This document shows, piece after piece, positions 26,835 through 37,017 of a stretch of DNA of 64,000 bases (the first letter of the stretch is position 1; the number at the start of each line of letters is the position of its first letter). The stretch is from Escherichia phage AV121, in the sequence record OR352951.1. The stretch is one strand, 5' to 3'. Under the pieces are notes generated by a model. The model had not been told where the DNA came from and searched no databases. It saw nothing but the letters and a program-made list of their open reading frames with translations. Position numbers and translations under genes: made by a program.

Positions 26835-26888
26835 TCCTCATGTTATGTCAGTAAGACTACTATAACACAACACGAGGGACTTGTAAAC
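26835..26888 (-). repeat. 54-bp promoter/5'UTR/RBS cassette, copy 1 (upstream of ORF 26537..26827)
   Basis: Identical to 40344..40397; minus strand reads GTTTAC-N18-TATAGT ... GAGGA, i.e. T4 early-promoter-like -35/-10 plus Shine-Dalgarno. Confidence 0.7.
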
Positions 26889-27246
26889 TGCATTTTGAAC
26901 TTTTTAGTACGCGGAATAGGCATGCGTCAATTTTATACTGCTTCATTGTTTGAAGAGCAGTATCAAAAACAGCATTAATGACGCCAATTGGATTTCCACC
27001 CAAGTTTTTAAGCTTAACCAGTGATAATTTCTCGTTGACACCTATCATTACGATATGCATCATTTTATCGCCTGGCTTAACGTTTTTATTTGTATCACCG
27101 CCAGAGGTGTATGTACAAAATCTAAATCCAGGAAGCACGCTTTCTTCGCCGGCTTGGATAGCAAAAATTTGTGGTATTTTATGCTTAGGATTTAAGTTAA
27201 CAACCGGCGCCGAAGCGCCGTCAAATAATTCTGTAATAAGTTCCAT
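26860..27246 (-). CDS. paralog of the Alt N-terminal domain (no ART catalytic region)
   Basis: 128-aa ORF aligning by eye with Alt residues 2 to ~125 (MELITELFD..NLNPK.KIPQIF..PGFR.CTYTSGGDTN..GDKMMHIV..QTM.QYKIDAC). Confidence 0.65.
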   Translation of the reverse strand: MELITELFDGASAPVVNLNPKHKIPQIFAIQAGEESVLPGFRFCTYTSGGDTNKNVKPGDKMMHIVMIGVNEKLSLVKLKNLGGNPIGVINAVFDTALQTMKQYKIDACLFRVLKSSKCSLQVPRVVL

Positions 27247-27249
27247 GAT

Positions 27250-29340
27250 TTATCCTTGAACGAACTTGTAAGGCATGTTTGTAATATCTATGCAAGACGC
27301 AATAATTCCAAGAGATGATTCTACTTTCTGTTTAACATTTGATGAAACAAATGATGCAAAGTCAACTCTATCTTCTATATCACCTGTCATTGCAACTACT
27401 TCGCCGGTTTCCATTAGACGGTCACCGTCATAAATTACCGATTCGGTGAGTTCTTCTGTGGTCATAACTTCAGCTTGAATGAGTTTTGTATTATTAGACG
27501 TGGTTCCGTCATTATTAGAAGCATCAGTTATTTTATTAACTTTGACCATCAATCCGCGCGGTAGAATAACTTCAGCTTCTGTTGCTATTCCGAGACTTCC
27601 TGGATATACAACATTAACTTTATGAGCTCCATCAATTGCCCATCCTATTTGAACTTTAACGTATTCAGGATTTTCTTTATACGCTCTTATTTCGTTTGGA
27701 TTAATAGTTATTCCTTCTTCATTTTTATCAACTGTTAATTCATTACGAGCTTCTGGTTCTAAAAGACCAATACCAGCATGTGTAATTCCAAAACGTCCAA
27801 AAATGATAGGAGTTAAAGAAGTAGATACAAAATTTCTGAAATAGAACACTTTATTTTTAACTAGGGCTTCGTATATAGGAGCAGTCATACTTTGAGCACG
27901 ATAAACTGTAATGCCTTTCGGTATGCGGTCACCATTTTCAAAAGCTGAATCTAAATTATTTATAGCAGATTCAATTTCTTTTTCACTCATTACATCATAT
28001 CGTTCTGGATTGTAACGACCTAAAAGAAGATTATTAATGTCTGTATATCCTGAGCCACAATATTCTCTAATGCCGCGCTTTTGTGATGGAGTATATTTAG
28101 AACCATCACGGGCAATAGTAATATCAATCATTGGACCAGCACCAATTCCAGAAAAACTATAAATCATTCGTTTGAGGAATTTAGTTTTTGCTGCATTCCA
28201 GGCATTTTTAGTTATTTCTCCCCAGACTTCATCTGGTTGTCCTTTACGAGTTTTATTATGTTTATCAAGCCAATTATCTTTATATTCTTCAAAGAATTTA
28301 TTAACAGCTGCTGCGTATTTCTCTAAACATTTTATTGAAGTAGTTGGTTCATTTTTAATTGCGTTAAAAATTACATCTTTAATTTTTTCTGAAACTTCAT
28401 CAACCTCACTTTTTGAAAAGAATTTATAGTCATAGTGAAGTTCATTCGCAGTTCCTTCGGCAATAATTTTTGCTGCCTTAGTTTTAGAAGCTAATGAATT
28501 AATTCCAAGCTTCATTTCTTCTGCTTCGGGAATTAAAGGAGCAGTAGCAGGTTTATTGAAATTAGCTGCGGTAGATTCATACTTCTGGAATAATTCACTT
28601 TCAAATCTAGAAGATTCCAATGACTGACTTTGTGCAATTGCTCTACGGGAAATTTTAACTTTAACGATTACAGCTTGGTCAGAACGTTTATCATTTTCTT
28701 GTGCAATAGACGCTGCAATTGCCTCATTTTTAGTTACTTGAGCTCCGGTATCTTTATTGATATAAACATCACCGACCTTCGATTCAACTTTAGTAAAGAG
28801 CTCGGTACTAATTTTCGGAACTCCTGGAATGTCTTCTAGTGATACATTTTTGCGATGTATAATAATATATGCATACTTTTTATCATAATCCCAGAGTTCC
28901 TTAAGAAGGACGTATCTGCCACCTGAACGACTACGGATAAGTCTATCAGCAATAACTTGAATTTGTCGAGCTTGACCAGCAGTTTTAGACTTAAGAATAC
29001 GGAGCATACAAGCATCAATTTTATACTGACGCATTGTTTGCATTGCAACAGTAAAAACTGAATTGATATAATTAATTGGGCTTGGACCAAGACCTTTTAA
29101 TTTAGCAATTGAACCTTTAGCAGTTAATGTAAAAGGAACAATATGCATCATTTTATCGCCCATCTTTAAATCGCGATTAGTATCACCTCCAGATGTATAT
29201 GTACATAAACGAAAGCCTGGTTGTTCAATTGCATCATCAACATGAACTGAAAAAATTTGCGGTATTTTCTTCTTTGGATTTAAGTTTGTAATCGGAAGAG
29301 TAGTATCTTCGTCAAATAATTCTGTAATGAGTTCCATCAT
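27250..29340 (-). CDS. alt: Alt ADP-ribosyltransferase (virion-packaged)
   Basis: 696-aa ORF; C-terminal half has ART-like R ... STS ... ExE (YRAQS, FVSTSL, ATEAEV); minus-strand TATAAATA 21 nt upstream. Confidence 0.85.
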   Translation of the reverse strand: MMELITELFDEDTTLPITNLNPKKKIPQIFSVHVDDAIEQPGFRLCTYTSGGDTNRDLKMGDKMMHIVPFTLTAKGSIAKLKGLGPSPINYINSVFTVAMQTMRQYKIDACMLRILKSKTAGQARQIQVIADRLIRSRSGGRYVLLKELWDYDKKYAYIIIHRKNVSLEDIPGVPKISTELFTKVESKVGDVYINKDTGAQVTKNEAIAASIAQENDKRSDQAVIVKVKISRRAIAQSQSLESSRFESELFQKYESTAANFNKPATAPLIPEAEEMKLGINSLASKTKAAKIIAEGTANELHYDYKFFSKSEVDEVSEKIKDVIFNAIKNEPTTSIKCLEKYAAAVNKFFEEYKDNWLDKHNKTRKGQPDEVWGEITKNAWNAAKTKFLKRMIYSFSGIGAGPMIDITIARDGSKYTPSQKRGIREYCGSGYTDINNLLLGRYNPERYDVMSEKEIESAINNLDSAFENGDRIPKGITVYRAQSMTAPIYEALVKNKVFYFRNFVSTSLTPIIFGRFGITHAGIGLLEPEARNELTVDKNEEGITINPNEIRAYKENPEYVKVQIGWAIDGAHKVNVVYPGSLGIATEAEVILPRGLMVKVNKITDASNNDGTTSNNTKLIQAEVMTTEELTESVIYDGDRLMETGEVVAMTGDIEDRVDFASFVSSNVKQKVESSLGIIASCIDITNMPYKFVQG

Positions 29341-29391: not shown

Positions 29392-29578
29392 AATAATCTA
29401 TTGGTAAGAGAGTACGATATATTTCAAACTTTGGACCTTTTTCATAAGCATCAAAAGTTTCTGTAAATTTATTATAAGCATATGCATCTATAAATTCAAT
29501 CATGATTTGTGATACAGAAGTAGAAACATCTCCGCCTTCTTTTTGAGCCACAACAATTGTTTCTAAGTAAGCTTTCAT
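29390..29578 (-). CDS. hypothetical protein between gene 30 and alt
   Basis: 62-aa ORF, ATG checked; stop overlaps a hairpin terminator. Confidence 0.5.
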   Translation of the reverse strand: MKAYLETIVVAQKEGGDVSTSVSQIMIEFIDAYAYNKFTETFDAYEKGPKFEIYRTLLPIDY

Positions 29579-31038
29579 AAACCAGTTACCTCATGAAAAT
29601 CACCAAATACATCTTCGAATGTATTAGCTTTAGTTTTATCTTCACGTAAACGAATCGCAATCGGAAGAAATAATTTAACGTAATCAGTGCGGCCATCAGA
29701 TTTTAACCAACCATTGCATTCGCACTCTAGAATTTTTCCAATATAATAATTTTGGTTTTCCATAATGCGAGTACGGTCAAGTTCATGTGATTTTACACCG
29801 GCTTTATCTTTTAAGCCTGAACCAGCATTTACTTTAATTTTTCCACACTCTGACTCAAGAATAAATCCACCTGCTTTAGTAGGGTCTTTACGGTGAGGAT
29901 AAATTCCTACAATTTTTAAATCAACATCAATTACTTCTTTAAATTTATAGAGATTTTTTGAACGAGCATTTTCCCACAATCCATCGGTATTTTTGAGAAT
30001 AATACCTTCAAGACCTTGGTCAATATACTTTTTATAAATTACCTTAGCTTCATCTAGGTTATTTACTACCTGGTTTTCAATTAAAATTACTTTATCATAA
30101 CCTGATGTCATTTGTTCTAGTTTAGAAAAACGTACATCATATTTCAAACGAAATGCAGGAAGACCGTATATTTCTACCAACGGGACATAATCCCAGACCT
30201 GAAACTTCATGCATTGAGCTTCTTTTTCAGAAATGGTTCCCTTTAAAGATTTATTGGCGATGCCATTAGATGCAGTACGTGATTCAGCTACTTCGGCGAA
30301 TTCTTTAGCTTTACTAATTTCAGGATAAGCATCAAAAAGAAAATCTAGGCCTTCTGGCTCCTTTTCAACTTGCTCATGGTATACCAATTCGCCATCAATT
30401 AACACACCTTCTGGATGAATCTGGCGAGCTTCTGCAGTCATTTTGATTAACTCTTCCTTAAGAAGATCTAATCCTAGATATTCATTACCAGCTCGTGATA
30501 AAAGACGAACATCATCTAATTCATCACCTCTGACTTCAGCAAAACACCGAGCTCCATCAGCTTTTAACTGGGCAAAGGCTGGAAATTTAATATTCTTATT
30601 AATGCCTTTTTCATCATAAGAACTTGCAAGCATTTGAGGTTGTTCAGGAATTAAACCTGGCCAAACTTTGTTTGCAATAGATACTGAAGCACCACATTCA
30701 AGGTCTCGCATCATCACTCGACGCAAAACTTCAACATCATCTTTTTTACCGTCAGTAATATAACCTACTAATTCCTCAATTGCCGCATTTCCGGTCAATT
30801 TTCGAGTAGCTAATGTAAATTCAATGAAGTCAAGCATATCAGTAATAGTCAGCATTCCAAAACTCTGGGTAGCAATACCAGGTTTAGGCCATTTCTTGAT
30901 ATAATACTGTAACCCACGAGAATAAGTCAGACGATATACTCGTTTAAGCAATTCATTATCTTTATTCTTTTCAAGAATTGCTTGCTTCTGCTTAGTTGAA
31001 CCAATAGATGCTATTTCGTTCAGAATTTTAAGAATCAT
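29575..31038 (-). CDS. 30: ATP-dependent DNA ligase gp30
   Basis: 487-aa ORF, same length as T4 DNA ligase; nucleotidyltransferase lysine context (LKADG). Confidence 0.95.
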   Translation of the reverse strand: MILKILNEIASIGSTKQKQAILEKNKDNELLKRVYRLTYSRGLQYYIKKWPKPGIATQSFGMLTITDMLDFIEFTLATRKLTGNAAIEELVGYITDGKKDDVEVLRRVMMRDLECGASVSIANKVWPGLIPEQPQMLASSYDEKGINKNIKFPAFAQLKADGARCFAEVRGDELDDVRLLSRAGNEYLGLDLLKEELIKMTAEARQIHPEGVLIDGELVYHEQVEKEPEGLDFLFDAYPEISKAKEFAEVAESRTASNGIANKSLKGTISEKEAQCMKFQVWDYVPLVEIYGLPAFRLKYDVRFSKLEQMTSGYDKVILIENQVVNNLDEAKVIYKKYIDQGLEGIILKNTDGLWENARSKNLYKFKEVIDVDLKIVGIYPHRKDPTKAGGFILESECGKIKVNAGSGLKDKAGVKSHELDRTRIMENQNYYIGKILECECNGWLKSDGRTDYVKLFLPIAIRLREDKTKANTFEDVFGDFHEVTGL

Positions 31039-31304
31039 TGTTCATCCTTTAGAGTTTGGTTTACAGCTCTATTATAAATCAATTCATCATTAAGCTCAGT
31101 CAAAGACCTATGGTACGTGGTTCTAACTTTATTTCCTTGCATCCAATGCTTGACGTAAATGAAACCTTGCTCTACACATTTTTTAAAAATTCGTTCGTCT
31201 TTTTGAGCTCGGAATTCTGGATTGCATCTAAAAAATTGATTTACGTGACCATAATCACGTGTAGTATTACCTTCATTTTCATAAATAGTGTGAACGACAA
31301 ACAT
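31035..31304 (-). CDS. hypothetical protein (T4 30.1 position)
   Basis: 89-aa ORF, ATG checked. Confidence 0.55.
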   Translation of the reverse strand: MFVVHTIYENEGNTTRDYGHVNQFFRCNPEFRAQKDERIFKKCVEQGFIYVKHWMQGNKVRTTYHRSLTELNDELIYNRAVNQTLKDEQ

Positions 31305-32167
31305 TAGAATGCTCCTTGGAAAATATTATCACCACTAGTAATTCTATTAAAATACCCTGCGTCGCCAGGCTTAATATAACTCCACGTATGGAATGGATTC
31401 ATATGATATGGATGTGTATAATATGGATTATATGGATGTGTATAATATGGATGATATGGATTTAATCCAGGAGTTCTCCATGTAGTATTTTGGCGAAAAG
31501 AATCGTTTTTAACCGTCTTCTCAATTACATCTTTTATAGCTTTTTCACTATCAAAACTTTCTTTATTTTCCTTCGGCGAAAAAAGCTTATTTTCTACATC
31601 ATTCCATGTATAAACTCGCTGAGCAGTTTTTGGAATATTGTCACGCTCTCCTCGAGCCATCCAATACACAGGAACACGTAATATTTCACTCGCATGATCG
31701 CAGTGGTGAGCGAGATCGTCAATATAACAAATTACGTTATATTTCTCTTTTGCCTTTTTGAACAACTCTTCTTTTGAAGAATCATGACCACACATCAGTA
31801 CTTCTGAGAAGGCACCAGGAAAAAGAGCATTCAAATTAAATTGACGATTCAGCAGAGCATCAATAGAATCACCCAATGCTGTAACAGCAACAAAATTATA
31901 ATCTTCTTTTAATTTGTTAATTACACACAGGGCATCTTTATACGGAGACAAGTAACGAATAAAATCTGAACGATTGTATTTTTCAATTAACTTGACGCCA
32001 AGTTCTTCATCACAGTTAAAGAGTTTACCAGGAGAAATAAATTTCTCATCCTGGATCATTTTTAAAATATGTTCTAACGGAAGATTATATTTCTGAGCAA
32101 AATAAGGAAGGCCTGATTGCCAGCTTAAACATACTCCATCAATATCAGTTAAAATAGTAGGCTTCAT
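31304..32167 (-). CDS. HAD-superfamily hydrolase-like protein with His/Tyr/Pro-rich repeat tail
   Basis: 287-aa ORF; HAD motif I (ILTDIDGV), motif II-like (VAVTALGDS), motif IV (ICYIDDLAHH); C-terminal NPYYTHPY repeats from a 24-bp tandem duplication. Confidence 0.6.
   Translation of the reverse strand: MKPTILTDIDGVCLSWQSGLPYFAQKYNLPLEHILKMIQDEKFISPGKLFNCDEELGVKLIEKYNRSDFIRYLSPYKDALCVINKLKEDYNFVAVTALGDSIDALLNRQFNLNALFPGAFSEVLMCGHDSSKEELFKKAKEKYNVICYIDDLAHHCDHASEILRVPVYWMARGERDNIPKTAQRVYTWNDVENKLFSPKENKESFDSEKAIKDVIEKTVKNDSFRQNTTWRTPGLNPYHPYYTHPYNPYYTHPYHMNPFHTWSYIKPGDAGYFNRITSGDNIFQGAF
31405..31458. repeat. 24-bp in-frame tandem duplication inside the HAD-like gene
   Basis: atggatgtgtataatatggat at 31408..31428 and 31432..31452 (period 24); encodes repeated HPYNPYYT octapeptides. 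Confidence 0.8.
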
Positions 32168-32622
32168 AGAGAGTCTCTTAATAGGTTTAACACATCAATA
32201 AATTCAGCTTCGGTTAGTATTGTATCATCTTTTGTTAGACCACTAGCCATGCTGTGCTTCAAAACTTTTCCTTTCGAGGCTTGTAATGCATCACGAAATC
32301 CCTTGTTTTGGATCGCTGCTTCAAAATATGCATTTGTGTATAATTCTTTCCACGCTGGGGAGTATCTTGAAAACGGAACTCCGAGCCAGAAGAGGGTCCC
32401 ACGGTCCTGAGCTCTAGCATAAGACCTTCCAGCTTGTTGGGCGGCAAGCCCGGATAACCCAAATATACGACGTTGTTGTTCAACATTTTTCACCTTGCAC
32501 CCTTGAAGGAATCCTTCAAGACCTCCAAATTGAATACCATCCATAACGAAAGGCCATTGGGCGAAATTACTTAATGCGCATGATGGCCACCTAAAATTGC
32601 TTCTAATCTCTAACTCAGACAT
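32164..32622 (-). CDS. NADAR / YbiA-like (DUF1768) domain protein
   Basis: 152-aa from first ATG (track starts at TTG 32628); N-terminal ...SNFRWPSCALSNFAQWPFVMDGIQF... resembles the NADAR signature as recalled. Confidence 0.55.
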   Translation of the reverse strand: MSELEIRSNFRWPSCALSNFAQWPFVMDGIQFGGLEGFLQGCKVKNVEQQRRIFGLSGLAAQQAGRSYARAQDRGTLFWLGVPFSRYSPAWKELYTNAYFEAAIQNKGFRDALQASKGKVLKHSMASGLTKDDTILTEAEFIDVLNLLRDSL

Positions 32623-32821
32623 TTTCAATGCTTATAATTTCAACATCAGCCCAATGACCATAACAAGGAAGACGAAATTCAACTGGCCAGTTAGGGTCCT
32701 TTTCTAATATAATAGACTCAACTTGTGGTTCTTCGTGTTCATCAGTGTACGGATTTTTATCTGTTACTTTATATGTGACCTTAATGTACTGAATTCCAAA
32801 AATCTTATTAATTATATTCAT
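32615..32821 (-). CDS. hypothetical protein
   Basis: 68-aa ORF, ATG checked. Confidence 0.45.
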   Translation of the reverse strand: MNIINKIFGIQYIKVTYKVTDKNPYTDEHEEPQVESIILEKDPNWPVEFRLPCYGHWADVEIISIENV

Positions 32822-33015
32822 ACTATTTCCTTTAATCCGTAGATAGGAGATAATTCATCGCCCATACGAAGGTCTTCATTTCCATCTACCCAAGAAACAA
32901 TATAAGCCTCTTTTACTTGAATACCACTCCATTTAAATGGAGGTAGAACCTTAGAAATTAATCCAGGTATACCAACTCCCTTTAATTCAACAGTTTGGCC
33001 TAAAAAGAATTTCAT
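32818..33015 (-). CDS. hypothetical protein
   Basis: 65-aa ORF, ATG checked; 4-nt overlaps with neighbours. Confidence 0.45.
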   Translation of the reverse strand: MKFFLGQTVELKGVGIPGLISKVLPPFKWSGIQVKEAYIVSWVDGNEDLRMGDELSPIYGLKEIV

Positions 33016-33302
33016 TAGAACCTCATCTGAAAACCGTGCGATTTAACATTACCGCCGCCAATATCAGAAATATTAATTTCACGCGCAATTGAAGGGTCAA
33101 TGTCAATTTCACGATTGAGTTTAGTGATAGCTAAAGTATCGCGCCCATTTACAGTACGGAACTTTAAAGGACATACTACATTAACGTAGTTTTTAATCGA
33201 TTCACTAGTAGGTTGCAAATGAGCAGGAAGGTCTTTAGGCGCCTTAGAGAAAACTACTTCGCAGAAGTTTTTACGAGTATCAAAATAAGTAGTCATAAAC
33301 AT
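33015..33302 (-). CDS. hypothetical protein
   Basis: Track starts at GTG 33365; first ATG at 33302 is preceded by GAGGAAAA and gives 95 aa; GTTTAC-type promoter-like element upstream. Confidence 0.5.
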   Translation of the reverse strand: MFMTTYFDTRKNFCEVVFSKAPKDLPAHLQPTSESIKNYVNVVCPLKFRTVNGRDTLAITKLNREIDIDPSIAREINISDIGGGNVKSHGFQMRF

Positions 33303-33414
33303 AGTATTTTCCTCAGTAAGGGGCCAAAGCCCTTTTCTTTTGTTTGTGTAAGATAATACTATCACAAAGGAACCGTACTGTAAACAACTTTATGCAATCT
33401 TTGGAAAATAAAAA

Positions 33415-33434
33415 AGGACTCCCGAAGGAGTCCT
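33415..33434 (-). terminator. rho-independent terminator after the basic small ORF
   Basis: AGGACTCC-cgaa-GGAGTCCT preceded on the plus strand by a 10-nt A-run (U-run on the minus transcript). Confidence 0.7.
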
Positions 33435-33438
33435 CAAC

Positions 33439-33615: not shown

Positions 33616-34013
33616 TATAAAGTCTCTTTTAAATGAAAATGCAGGACTTATTGGCATTGCCTGCGCAAGCCCTCAAAGGGAACATAGGTTTTTGGATATT
33701 TAACGACCAGGATAACCATAAACCCGTCATCATACCTTATAGCTCTTATCTGTTGCACACCGTTAGCTTAAAGGTTCCGGGTCCGATTACTCGAGGATAA
33801 GATATATACTGATGGATATATAGGCCTTGAGGCGTACTCCCGATTGGCCATCACCTCGGGGTAGCATGCACTTGCCGCTATAAGAATAACATTCAAGAGG
33901 TACACCGTAAAACTGCCGGGGTCTTAAAACTATAATGATTCGCAAATCATTAATCAGACAGTTCGACGGCTCCTCGTTTTAACTTCACACTAAGGTAGTG
34001 ACTCTCCAATAAA

Positions 34014-36263: not shown

Positions 36264-36496
36264 AGTACGCCATACACCCTTTGTGCTTCAACTAATCCAT
36301 CAAAATCCAATTTGAGATGTGTTATTTGGTCACCATCACCTGGATTCACAATTACTAATACTGAACGAGGAGTTTCGGTAATAACACGAACCGATGTTTC
36401 GGGAAATCGTTCAGAAACCTTATTTACTAATTCCTGCGCAAATAGTTTAACTTTTTCTTGGAATTCTTTAACAGTAATTGGTTTTTCACTTAGCAT
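36260..36496 (-). CDS. hypothetical protein
   Basis: 78-aa ORF, ATG checked. Confidence 0.5.
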   Translation of the reverse strand: MLSEKPITVKEFQEKVKLFAQELVNKVSERFPETSVRVITETPRSVLVIVNPGDGDQITHLKLDFDGLVEAQRVYGVL

Positions 36497-37017
36497 GTTG
36501 ATCCCAGCTCCTTACTTTCAACGTTTTTAACTAATTTGACAGAAACTAATTCAGCATCTTGGGTAATCATTACCGGGCCTTCTTCATGCTCTTCAAGATA
36601 TTCTAGAGCTTTCTTTTTAGCTTCTTCCTTCGTATCAGTTTGAGCATAGATATAGAACATACAACCAGTAATACCTACTACTTTCCACTTAATTTCTTTA
36701 TCAGTTTTAATTTCAAATTTACTTACAGAATCATCTTTTTGAACTTCTTCGAAAAAAGAATATTCTAACATATAAGCAATTGAAAATAACGGGCTAACTT
36801 TATAGGATTCACCCATTACATCAACAGCTTTATACCAACAATCATCAATTTCGCGTTTAATGCTAATAACATTTTTCGCAGGATCTATTTTTACTTTAAA
36901 TGAATTTTCCCCAATAAACTGGGCAATTCGTTTATTAGCCCCGCAAGTTTCATTAAAAATATCTTTATACCCAGTTTTAAAGCGATAAACCTTATCTTCT
37001 TCAAACCATTCGCTCAT
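36490..37017 (-). CDS. hypothetical protein
   Basis: 175-aa ORF; GAGGAAA RBS; promoter-like GTTTAC element with hairpin upstream. Confidence 0.5.
   Translation of the reverse strand: MSEWFEEDKVYRFKTGYKDIFNETCGANKRIAQFIGENSFKVKIDPAKNVISIKREIDDCWYKAVDVMGESYKVSPLFSIAYMLEYSFFEEVQKDDSVSKFEIKTDKEIKWKVVGITGCMFYIYAQTDTKEEAKKKALEYLEEHEEGPVMITQDAELVSVKLVKNVESKELGSTC

Follow-up and report, generated by a model that had tools for sequence, protein, structure and literature searches.

A NADAR-superfamily protein encoded by the gene 30.3 (adfN) orthologue of a Tequatrovirus, a probable antagonist of DarTG1

A bacteriophage gene, on the minus strand at positions 32164..32622 of a 64,000 nucleotide stretch of Escherichia phage AV121 (sequence record OR352951.1; hereafter 'the window'), encodes a product of 152 amino acids followed by a stop codon, and is the orthologue of T4 gene 30.3, otherwise termed adfN; its product, AdfN, is predicted to be an ADP-ribosylglycohydrolase of the phage clade of NADAR proteins. 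An earlier, sequence-only reading of the same DNA had placed a NADAR/YbiA-like (DUF1768) gene at 32164-32628, with a product of about 152 residues. The length of the product and the existence of the open reading frame (ORF) both stand, while the boundary at 32628 is that of the listed frame, which spans 32164..32628 on the minus strand and comprises 154 amino acids when counted from a TTG codon; this in-frame TTG lies two codons upstream of the ATG at 32622, which is the annotated start and gives the 152 residue protein. Residue numbering from this ATG agrees with that used for the T4 protein in the literature. The frame represents a real gene, not a chance ORF, because its product matches the Pfam family PF08010 with an E value of 2.3e-70 and has tblastn matches to 1,510 phage records, the coverage reaching at least 80% of the protein in 1,503.

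A megablast search with the region 31000..33400 retrieved 683 phage records at up to 97% identity, nearly all belonging to Tequatrovirus and its relatives among the phages of Escherichia, Shigella and Yersinia, and the source of the window is a Tequatrovirus. The adfN DNA is 98.1% identical to that of phage T4, and the encoded protein matches T4 gp30.3 at 151 of 152 positions (99.3%), the two being colinear through the stop codon. The sole difference, a conservative substitution, is at residue 125, which is Met here and Ile in T4, Met being the consensus of the wider family; proteins 100% identical to this AdfN are encoded by phages teqskov, vB_EcoM_112 and teqhad. The T4 record places the corresponding coding sequence between genes 30.4 and 30.2, with 30.1, gene 30 (DNA ligase), alt.1 and alt following downstream. 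The identity to T4, together with the matching position between 30.4 and 30.2, establishes the gene as T4 gene 30.3. The two alleles share their length, the residues E36, K43 and H123, a C-terminal helix and the neighbourhood 30.4-30.3-30.2-30.1-30-alt; apart from the single substitution, they differ in that the region in the window is without genes 30.7 and 30.8, and in a ten residue expansion of the tail of the neighbouring protein gp30.2.

These genes are tightly packed on the minus strand. The stop codon of gene 30.4 (32615..32821, 68 amino acids; phrog_2042, E = 4e-35) overlaps the start of adfN by 8 nucleotides, and the stop of adfN overlaps the start of gene 30.2 (31304..32167, 287 amino acids) by 4 nucleotides, in the arrangement ATGA; the 30.4-adfN-30.2 run is probably translationally coupled. 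Beyond these lie gene 30, encoding the ATP-dependent DNA ligase (29575..31038; PF01068, E = 1.1e-32, and T4 synteny), and alt, encoding the packaged ADP-ribosyltransferase (27250..29340; PF03496, E = 4.5e-37, and T4 annotation). The nearby ligase described by the sequence-only reading is thus present, and its placement of Alt at about 3 kb corresponds to a gap between alt and adfN of 2,824 nucleotides.

The match of AdfN to PF08010 (Phage_30_3, 'Bacteriophage protein GP30.3') scores 235 bits relative to a gathering cut-off of 36, and extends over the full length of the model (1-138 of 138). This label does not mention NADAR, and several further results of direct searches weigh against a place in that superfamily. 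The NADAR/DUF1768 family itself, PF08719, was not matched at E <= 1 in the direct Pfam scan of AdfN, and scans of the protein with the NCBIfam and PADLOC models likewise gave no match. When AdfN was searched as a single sequence against the PDB with phmmer, only one spurious match (E = 0.61) was returned. Among the PHROGs it matches phrog_652, labelled 'unknown function', and gives a weak second match to phrog_1017 (E = 0.009) across the N-terminal motif. This motif, SNFRWPSCALSNFAQWPFVMDGIQF, occupies residues 8-32 of the product and is the pattern that had been recognised as the NADAR signature; the absence of a significant hidden Markov model match to NADAR had been named at the same time as an outcome that would refute the assignment. 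Taken literally, the direct scan gives exactly that outcome, but matches obtained through profiles and intermediate sequences reverse the conclusion.

All 104 homologues retrieved from databases match PF08010, several of them carrying the JGI name 'YbiA (DUF1768 family)', and one, P0083, matches PF08719 as well. Forty-seven diverse members of PF08010 were scanned one by one and also built into a profile. In the individual scans PF08719 was matched by 19 of the 47, with a best E value of 1.5e-7, and the profile found a sole significant match in the PDB, Escherichia coli YbiA (2b3w; E = 0.0061), in an alignment that spans the motif region and pairs E36 and K43 of AdfN with E48 and K55 of YbiA, respectively. 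An AlphaFold2 model of AdfN, produced from an alignment, reached a mean predicted local distance difference test (pLDDT) score of 93.2 and a predicted template modelling score of 0.88. It has the helical core and small flanking sheets of the YbiA/NADAR fold, and a Foldseek search of the PDB with it returned probabilities of at least 0.99 only for 2b3w, 8bau and 8bat, these being YbiA, a Phytophthora NADAR in complex with ADP-ribose and the DarT1-associated NADAR of Geobacter lovleyi; all other matches had probabilities of 0.07 or less. As the profile, transitive and fold tests agree, the gp30.3 family belongs within the NADAR superfamily, of which it is a divergent branch modelled separately by Pfam, and it is this division of the superfamily into two Pfam families that accounts for the missing direct match to PF08719. 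The relationship is visible only to profile, transitive and fold methods, direct scans being silent. Later work (PMC11125620, PMC11543638) credits de Souza and Aravind with a bioinformatic classification of the family in 2012. The distant homologue P0083 also matches PDC-M42C, a PADLOC model of a candidate defence system (E = 3.4e-5), which suggests that a defence system predicted in bacteria includes a NADAR-like component.

Both catalytic residues of the N-terminal E..Q..K motif, the Glu and the Lys, are retained in AdfN, a comparison that had been proposed as a check on the assignment. As read from the sequence, Glu36, a catalytic residue in contact with ADP-ribose, is encoded by the GAA codon at 32515..32517, and the catalytic Lys43 by the AAG codon at 32494..32496, both on the minus strand. 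A third position, His123 (codon CAC, 32254..32256, minus strand), is characteristic of phage NADARs, in which the catalytic residue of the last strand, Glu in YbiA-type proteins and Asp in the DarT1-associated (DarG1/BC4488) type, is replaced by His (PMC11125620, PMC11543638, PMC12945103). Glu36 and His123 are invariant across the 47 homologues, and Lys43 is at least 90% conserved. In the AlphaFold2 model His123 falls at the end of, or just after, the last strand (residues 120-122), and the bridging alignment of P0083 to YbiA stops one residue before this position; the alignment, the location in the model and the literature together fit with His123 being the equivalent of the last-strand Glu or Asp. 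The model also includes an intact C-terminal helix formed by residues 138-151 (32170..32211, minus strand).

This helix is lost from the inactive allele of phage RB69 through a frameshift, which reduces activity and explains the sensitivity of RB69 to DarTG1 (PMC11825919). Decay of a similar kind, as in RB69 or truncated Tequatrovirus forms, might be considered for the window too, given that truncated or fused gp30.3 fragments are found in public records (P0007, P0013-P0017 and P0051) and that the nearby genes 30.7 and 30.8 have been deleted here. Yet the ORF is full length, which refutes a pseudogene or RB69-type allele at the sequence level, and its product shares 99.3% identity with the active protein of T4, with E36, K43, H123 and the helix all intact, leaving an inactive allele with a negligible probability.

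The activity and phenotype of the T4 protein have been established in a series of publications. Schuller et al. demonstrated in 2023 that NADARs reverse the ADP-ribosylation of guanine by DarT1, and noted the His variant in those of phages (PMC11543638). Purified T4 gp30.3 was then found to hydrolyse ADP-ribose (ADPr) adducts of guanine, but not those of thymine, in a 2024 study in Toxins (PMC11125620). The methods of this study describe the T4 gp30.3 construct as 'residues 1-208', in contrast to the 152 amino acids of the protein in both T4 and the window, a discrepancy that may stem from tags, a typographical error or another gene model (PMC11125620). Johannesman et al. mapped the ability of T-even phages to resist DarTG1 to gene 30.3 in 2025 and renamed it adfN, which was both necessary for protection, based on deletions in T2 and T4, and sufficient, based on the rescue of RB69; purified AdfN strips ADPr from DNA, and the substitutions E36A and K43A impair the T4 protein (PMC11825919). 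Hence both the ADP-ribosyl-guanine hydrolase activity and the counter-defence role against DarT that the sequence-only reading had put forward are documented for an orthologue one residue different, and this allele would be expected to behave as that of T4 does.

It is therefore very probable that the adfN product is a guanine-ADP-ribose glycohydrolase that counters DarTG1. AdfN would represent a minimal, single-domain NADAR enzyme, in effect an 'orphan antitoxin'. In the mechanism published for the T4 orthologue, when a T-even phage enters a host with the toxin-antitoxin defence DarTG1, the toxin DarT1 ADP-ribosylates guanines in the phage DNA and so blocks replication; AdfN breaks the N-glycosidic link that joins ADP-ribose to guanine, restoring the DNA and allowing replication. 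In the active site Glu36 and Lys43 position the ribose, and the last strand has H123 where cellular NADARs have Glu or Asp. Some published observations fit less comfortably with this account: AdfN-T4 gives no rescue of uninfected E. coli from DarT1 (PMC11125620), it rescues phages other than T-evens only partly, the E36A and K43A mutants lose function in vivo only partly, and AdfN is fully effective only during infection by Tevenvirinae, implying the involvement of a further phage factor or context (PMC11825919).

AdfN can be distinguished from the cellular NADARs to which it is related. In contrast to the DarT1-associated antitoxin DarG1 (the BC4488 family, including 8bat and the NADAR of E. 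coli C7), it is not accompanied by a DarT1 gene: no DarT-like gene was detected by Pfam or PADLOC in the ORFs flanking adfN, the neighbours being 30.4 and 30.2. An N-terminal extension is present in DarG1 only, AdfN comprising 152 amino acids, with the domain beginning at around residue 3, as against 219 in 8bat; the last-strand residue is Asp in DarG1 and His123 in AdfN; and the failure of AdfN-T4 to neutralise DarT1 in uninfected cells, seen in published assays, is a further distinction. AdfN-Bas32 and AdfN-Bas60, from T5-like and Vequintavirinae phages, are likewise orphan phage NADARs countering DarTG1, but which are described as belonging to other NADAR clades, as having been acquired independently and as functioning without T-even infection (PMC11825919).

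YbiA is the best structural relative at the sequence level, and its name has been attached to some of the homologues by the JGI, which could be taken to indicate that AdfN is a housekeeping N-glycosidase acting on intermediates of the riboflavin pathway or in nucleotide salvage, the latter having been the alternative offered by the sequence-only reading. However, identity between the two is only around 18-20%, with PF08719 matching YbiA but not AdfN directly, and the last-strand Glu of the YbiA family is His in AdfN. The genetics and biochemistry point to an anti-DarT1 role (PMC11825919), where YbiA is an N-glycosidase of riboflavin intermediates, and no riboflavin genes are found among the neighbours of adfN in the ORF list and Pfam scan. 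The salvage alternative lacks support, and a YbiA-type function is scarcely credible.

A different possibility is that the activity is directed at a broader range of nucleic acids, with its main value lying in the removal of guanine ADP-ribosylation other than that of DarT1 on phage DNA, such as that produced by variants of DarT1, by toxins resembling pierisin or ScARP, or on RNA. Such a function would add to the anti-DarTG1 role, with which it is compatible, and not replace it. In vitro, the T4 NADAR does remove ADPr from guanine in both RNA and DNA (PMC11833690, PMC12945103), and the family's 1,510 phage records extend over many host genera and beyond the Straboviridae. Nevertheless, the activity on RNA is known only in vitro and is weaker than that of the DarG1 NADAR (PMC11833690), and the phage NADAR is not among the enzymes listed as reversing cytidine ADP-ribosylation (PMC12945103). 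The position of some homologues has a bearing on this, since in Aeromonas phage 31 (locus L007, 3501-3950) and Ralstonia phage RSP15 (locus L010, 3495-4013) the gene is found inside a cluster of transfer RNA (tRNA) genes, not beside the ligase or 30.2. This placement and the removal of guanine-ADPr from RNA in vitro may be linked or may coincide by chance, as the tRNA cluster may merely reflect a hyperplastic region. Overall, a broader target as the main value of the gene is unlikely. Genes for NUDIX or ADP-ribose pyrophosphatase proteins, at L003 11115-11879 in a jumbo-phage-like metagenomic contig and at L008 403-927 in Acinetobacter phage Konradin, lie within about 3 kb of the NADAR gene, which would fit with disposal of the freed ADP-ribose.

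The proximity of alt raises the question of whether AdfN instead reverses or tunes the ADP-ribosylation carried out by the phage's own enzymes, Alt, ModA and ModB. Alt and Mod ADP-ribosylate arginines in proteins. The two genes are 2.8 kb apart in the same orientation, and an Acinetobacter phage of the Twarogvirinae retains the arrangement 30.3-30.2-ligase-alt at 46% identity. By contrast, NADARs are hydrolases specific for guanine in nucleic acids, a different substrate from the protein arginines modified by Alt and Mod. Neither the 30.3-30.2 nor the 30.3-alt linkage, when sought outside the T-even-like phages, was found in Aeromonas phage 31, Klebsiella phage phiKp_17 or Ralstonia phage RSP15, and the NADAR gene of the jumbo-phage-like contig is without 30.2, ligase or alt nearby. 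An ORF downstream of this last homologue (L003, 8476-9240) was tested as a possible relative of gp30.2 and is not related. Because the linkage is lost from distant carriers, the closeness of adfN to alt and the ligase gene is treated as synteny at the level of the lineage and not as evidence of a functional link; action of AdfN on the phage's own modifications is highly improbable.

The same considerations apply to gene 30.2, whose phosphatase-like product is 90% identical to T4 gp30.2. No HAD family was matched in the Pfam scan of gp30.2 at E <= 1, and none of 100 homologues carries a precomputed Pfam domain. Even so, 38 homologues all have D8, D10, K132, D150 and D151, which correspond to HAD motifs I (DxD), III (Lys) and IV (DD). 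The top match of a gp30.2 profile in the PDB was the 5'(3')-deoxyribonucleotidase 2jao (E = 0.039), with motif I aligned to the NMDGVL of that protein, and a structural model with a pLDDT above 90 across residues 1-200 matched 121 HAD structures at E <= 0.001, the top 50 matches all being HAD members and the best geometric fits being to 5'(3')-deoxyribonucleotidases (TM-scores of 0.63-0.71, normalised to target length). The model accordingly supports a Rossmannoid HAD fold with a cap and intact catalytic motifs in residues 1-200, and the 'HAD-like hydrolase' label of the sequence-only reading is upheld despite the lack of a Pfam match. The C-terminal 60 or so residues (31304..31480, minus strand) form a disordered tail rich in Pro, Tyr and His, …NPYHPYYTHPYNPYYTHPYHMNPF…, with a pLDDT below 50; this contains the ten residue repeat expansion relative to T4 and is the sole poorly conserved part of the protein, the rest being 98% identical.

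Given that AdfN-T4 reaches full activity only in T-even infection, gp30.2 might be conceived of as the T-even-specific factor required, in a two-enzyme module where AdfN would remove the ADPr adduct and gp30.2 would process the product or a repair intermediate. The ATGA overlap is in keeping with this idea, as are the conserved succession of 30.3 and 30.2, in that order, between Tevenvirinae and the Acinetobacter Twarogvirinae and the occurrence of each gene in some 1,500 phage records, the counts by genus being nearly the same. The pairing is gone, however, from the Aeromonas, Klebsiella (Slopekvirus), Ralstonia and jumbo-phage carriers, and the co-distribution is that expected of any two widespread Straboviridae genes. 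A potentiating role for gp30.2 is thus very unlikely, and that the factor is the glucosyl-hydroxymethylcytosine DNA itself is equally open; gene 30.2 is best regarded as context, not as a proven partner.

Within adfN, a second frame in the +1 register (32259..32486, minus strand) could encode the 75 amino acid 30.3' product annotated in T4. This frame is open in the window, and its start region and stop are kept in T4, teqhad, IME08 (Dhakavirus) and TH55 (Gaprivervirus), having been retained although the AdfN proteins of IME08 and TH55 diverge by around 11-16% in amino acids; it is not present in the Aeromonas and Klebsiella homologues. Upstream of adfN, 782 bp of T4 containing genes 30.7 and 30.8 (T4 locus L002, 7170-7951) are missing at the junction 33332/33333, and public records include gp30.3 fragments joined to gp30.7 or gp30.8 domains (P0014 and P0051). 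On the basis of these fusions and the absence of 30.7 and 30.8 from the window, the stretch 30.3-30.9 looks prone to deletion. Scanning for promoters gave only a background level, with 25 promoter-like sites compared to 23 expected, as did scanning for terminators. One strong terminator-like hairpin at 33414-33435 on the minus strand lies upstream of gene 30.6; the transcription unit may begin there, but the hairpin is not counted here as evidence.

Further differences from T4 lie outside the gene run. Two segments of the window are not found in the T4 'wild' record: 155 nucleotides between 30.9 and rIII (33734..33888), and approximately 519 nucleotides at 36496..37014. The latter contains a 175 amino acid ORF (36490..37017, minus strand) that phage teqhad also has, labelled as a hypothetical protein. 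Downstream of alt, the region 26860..27256 (minus strand) includes a 128 amino acid ORF, and the segment 27050..27256 has 71% identity to the alt gene of T4 at its 5' end, a similarity that matches the old partial duplication of alt (alt.-1/alt.-2) annotated in T4.

The function of this protein and its role against DarTG1 are already known, having been established in papers of 2023-2026 for a protein differing by one residue, and the finding has little value as a discovery. Its chief practical use is in the correction of annotation: nearly all of the approximately 1,500 phage records that include adfN label it 'hypothetical protein', and a routine Pfam scan yields just 'Bacteriophage protein GP30.3', masking the known function. 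For the biology of this phage, the intact adfN allele predicts resistance to hosts carrying DarTG1.

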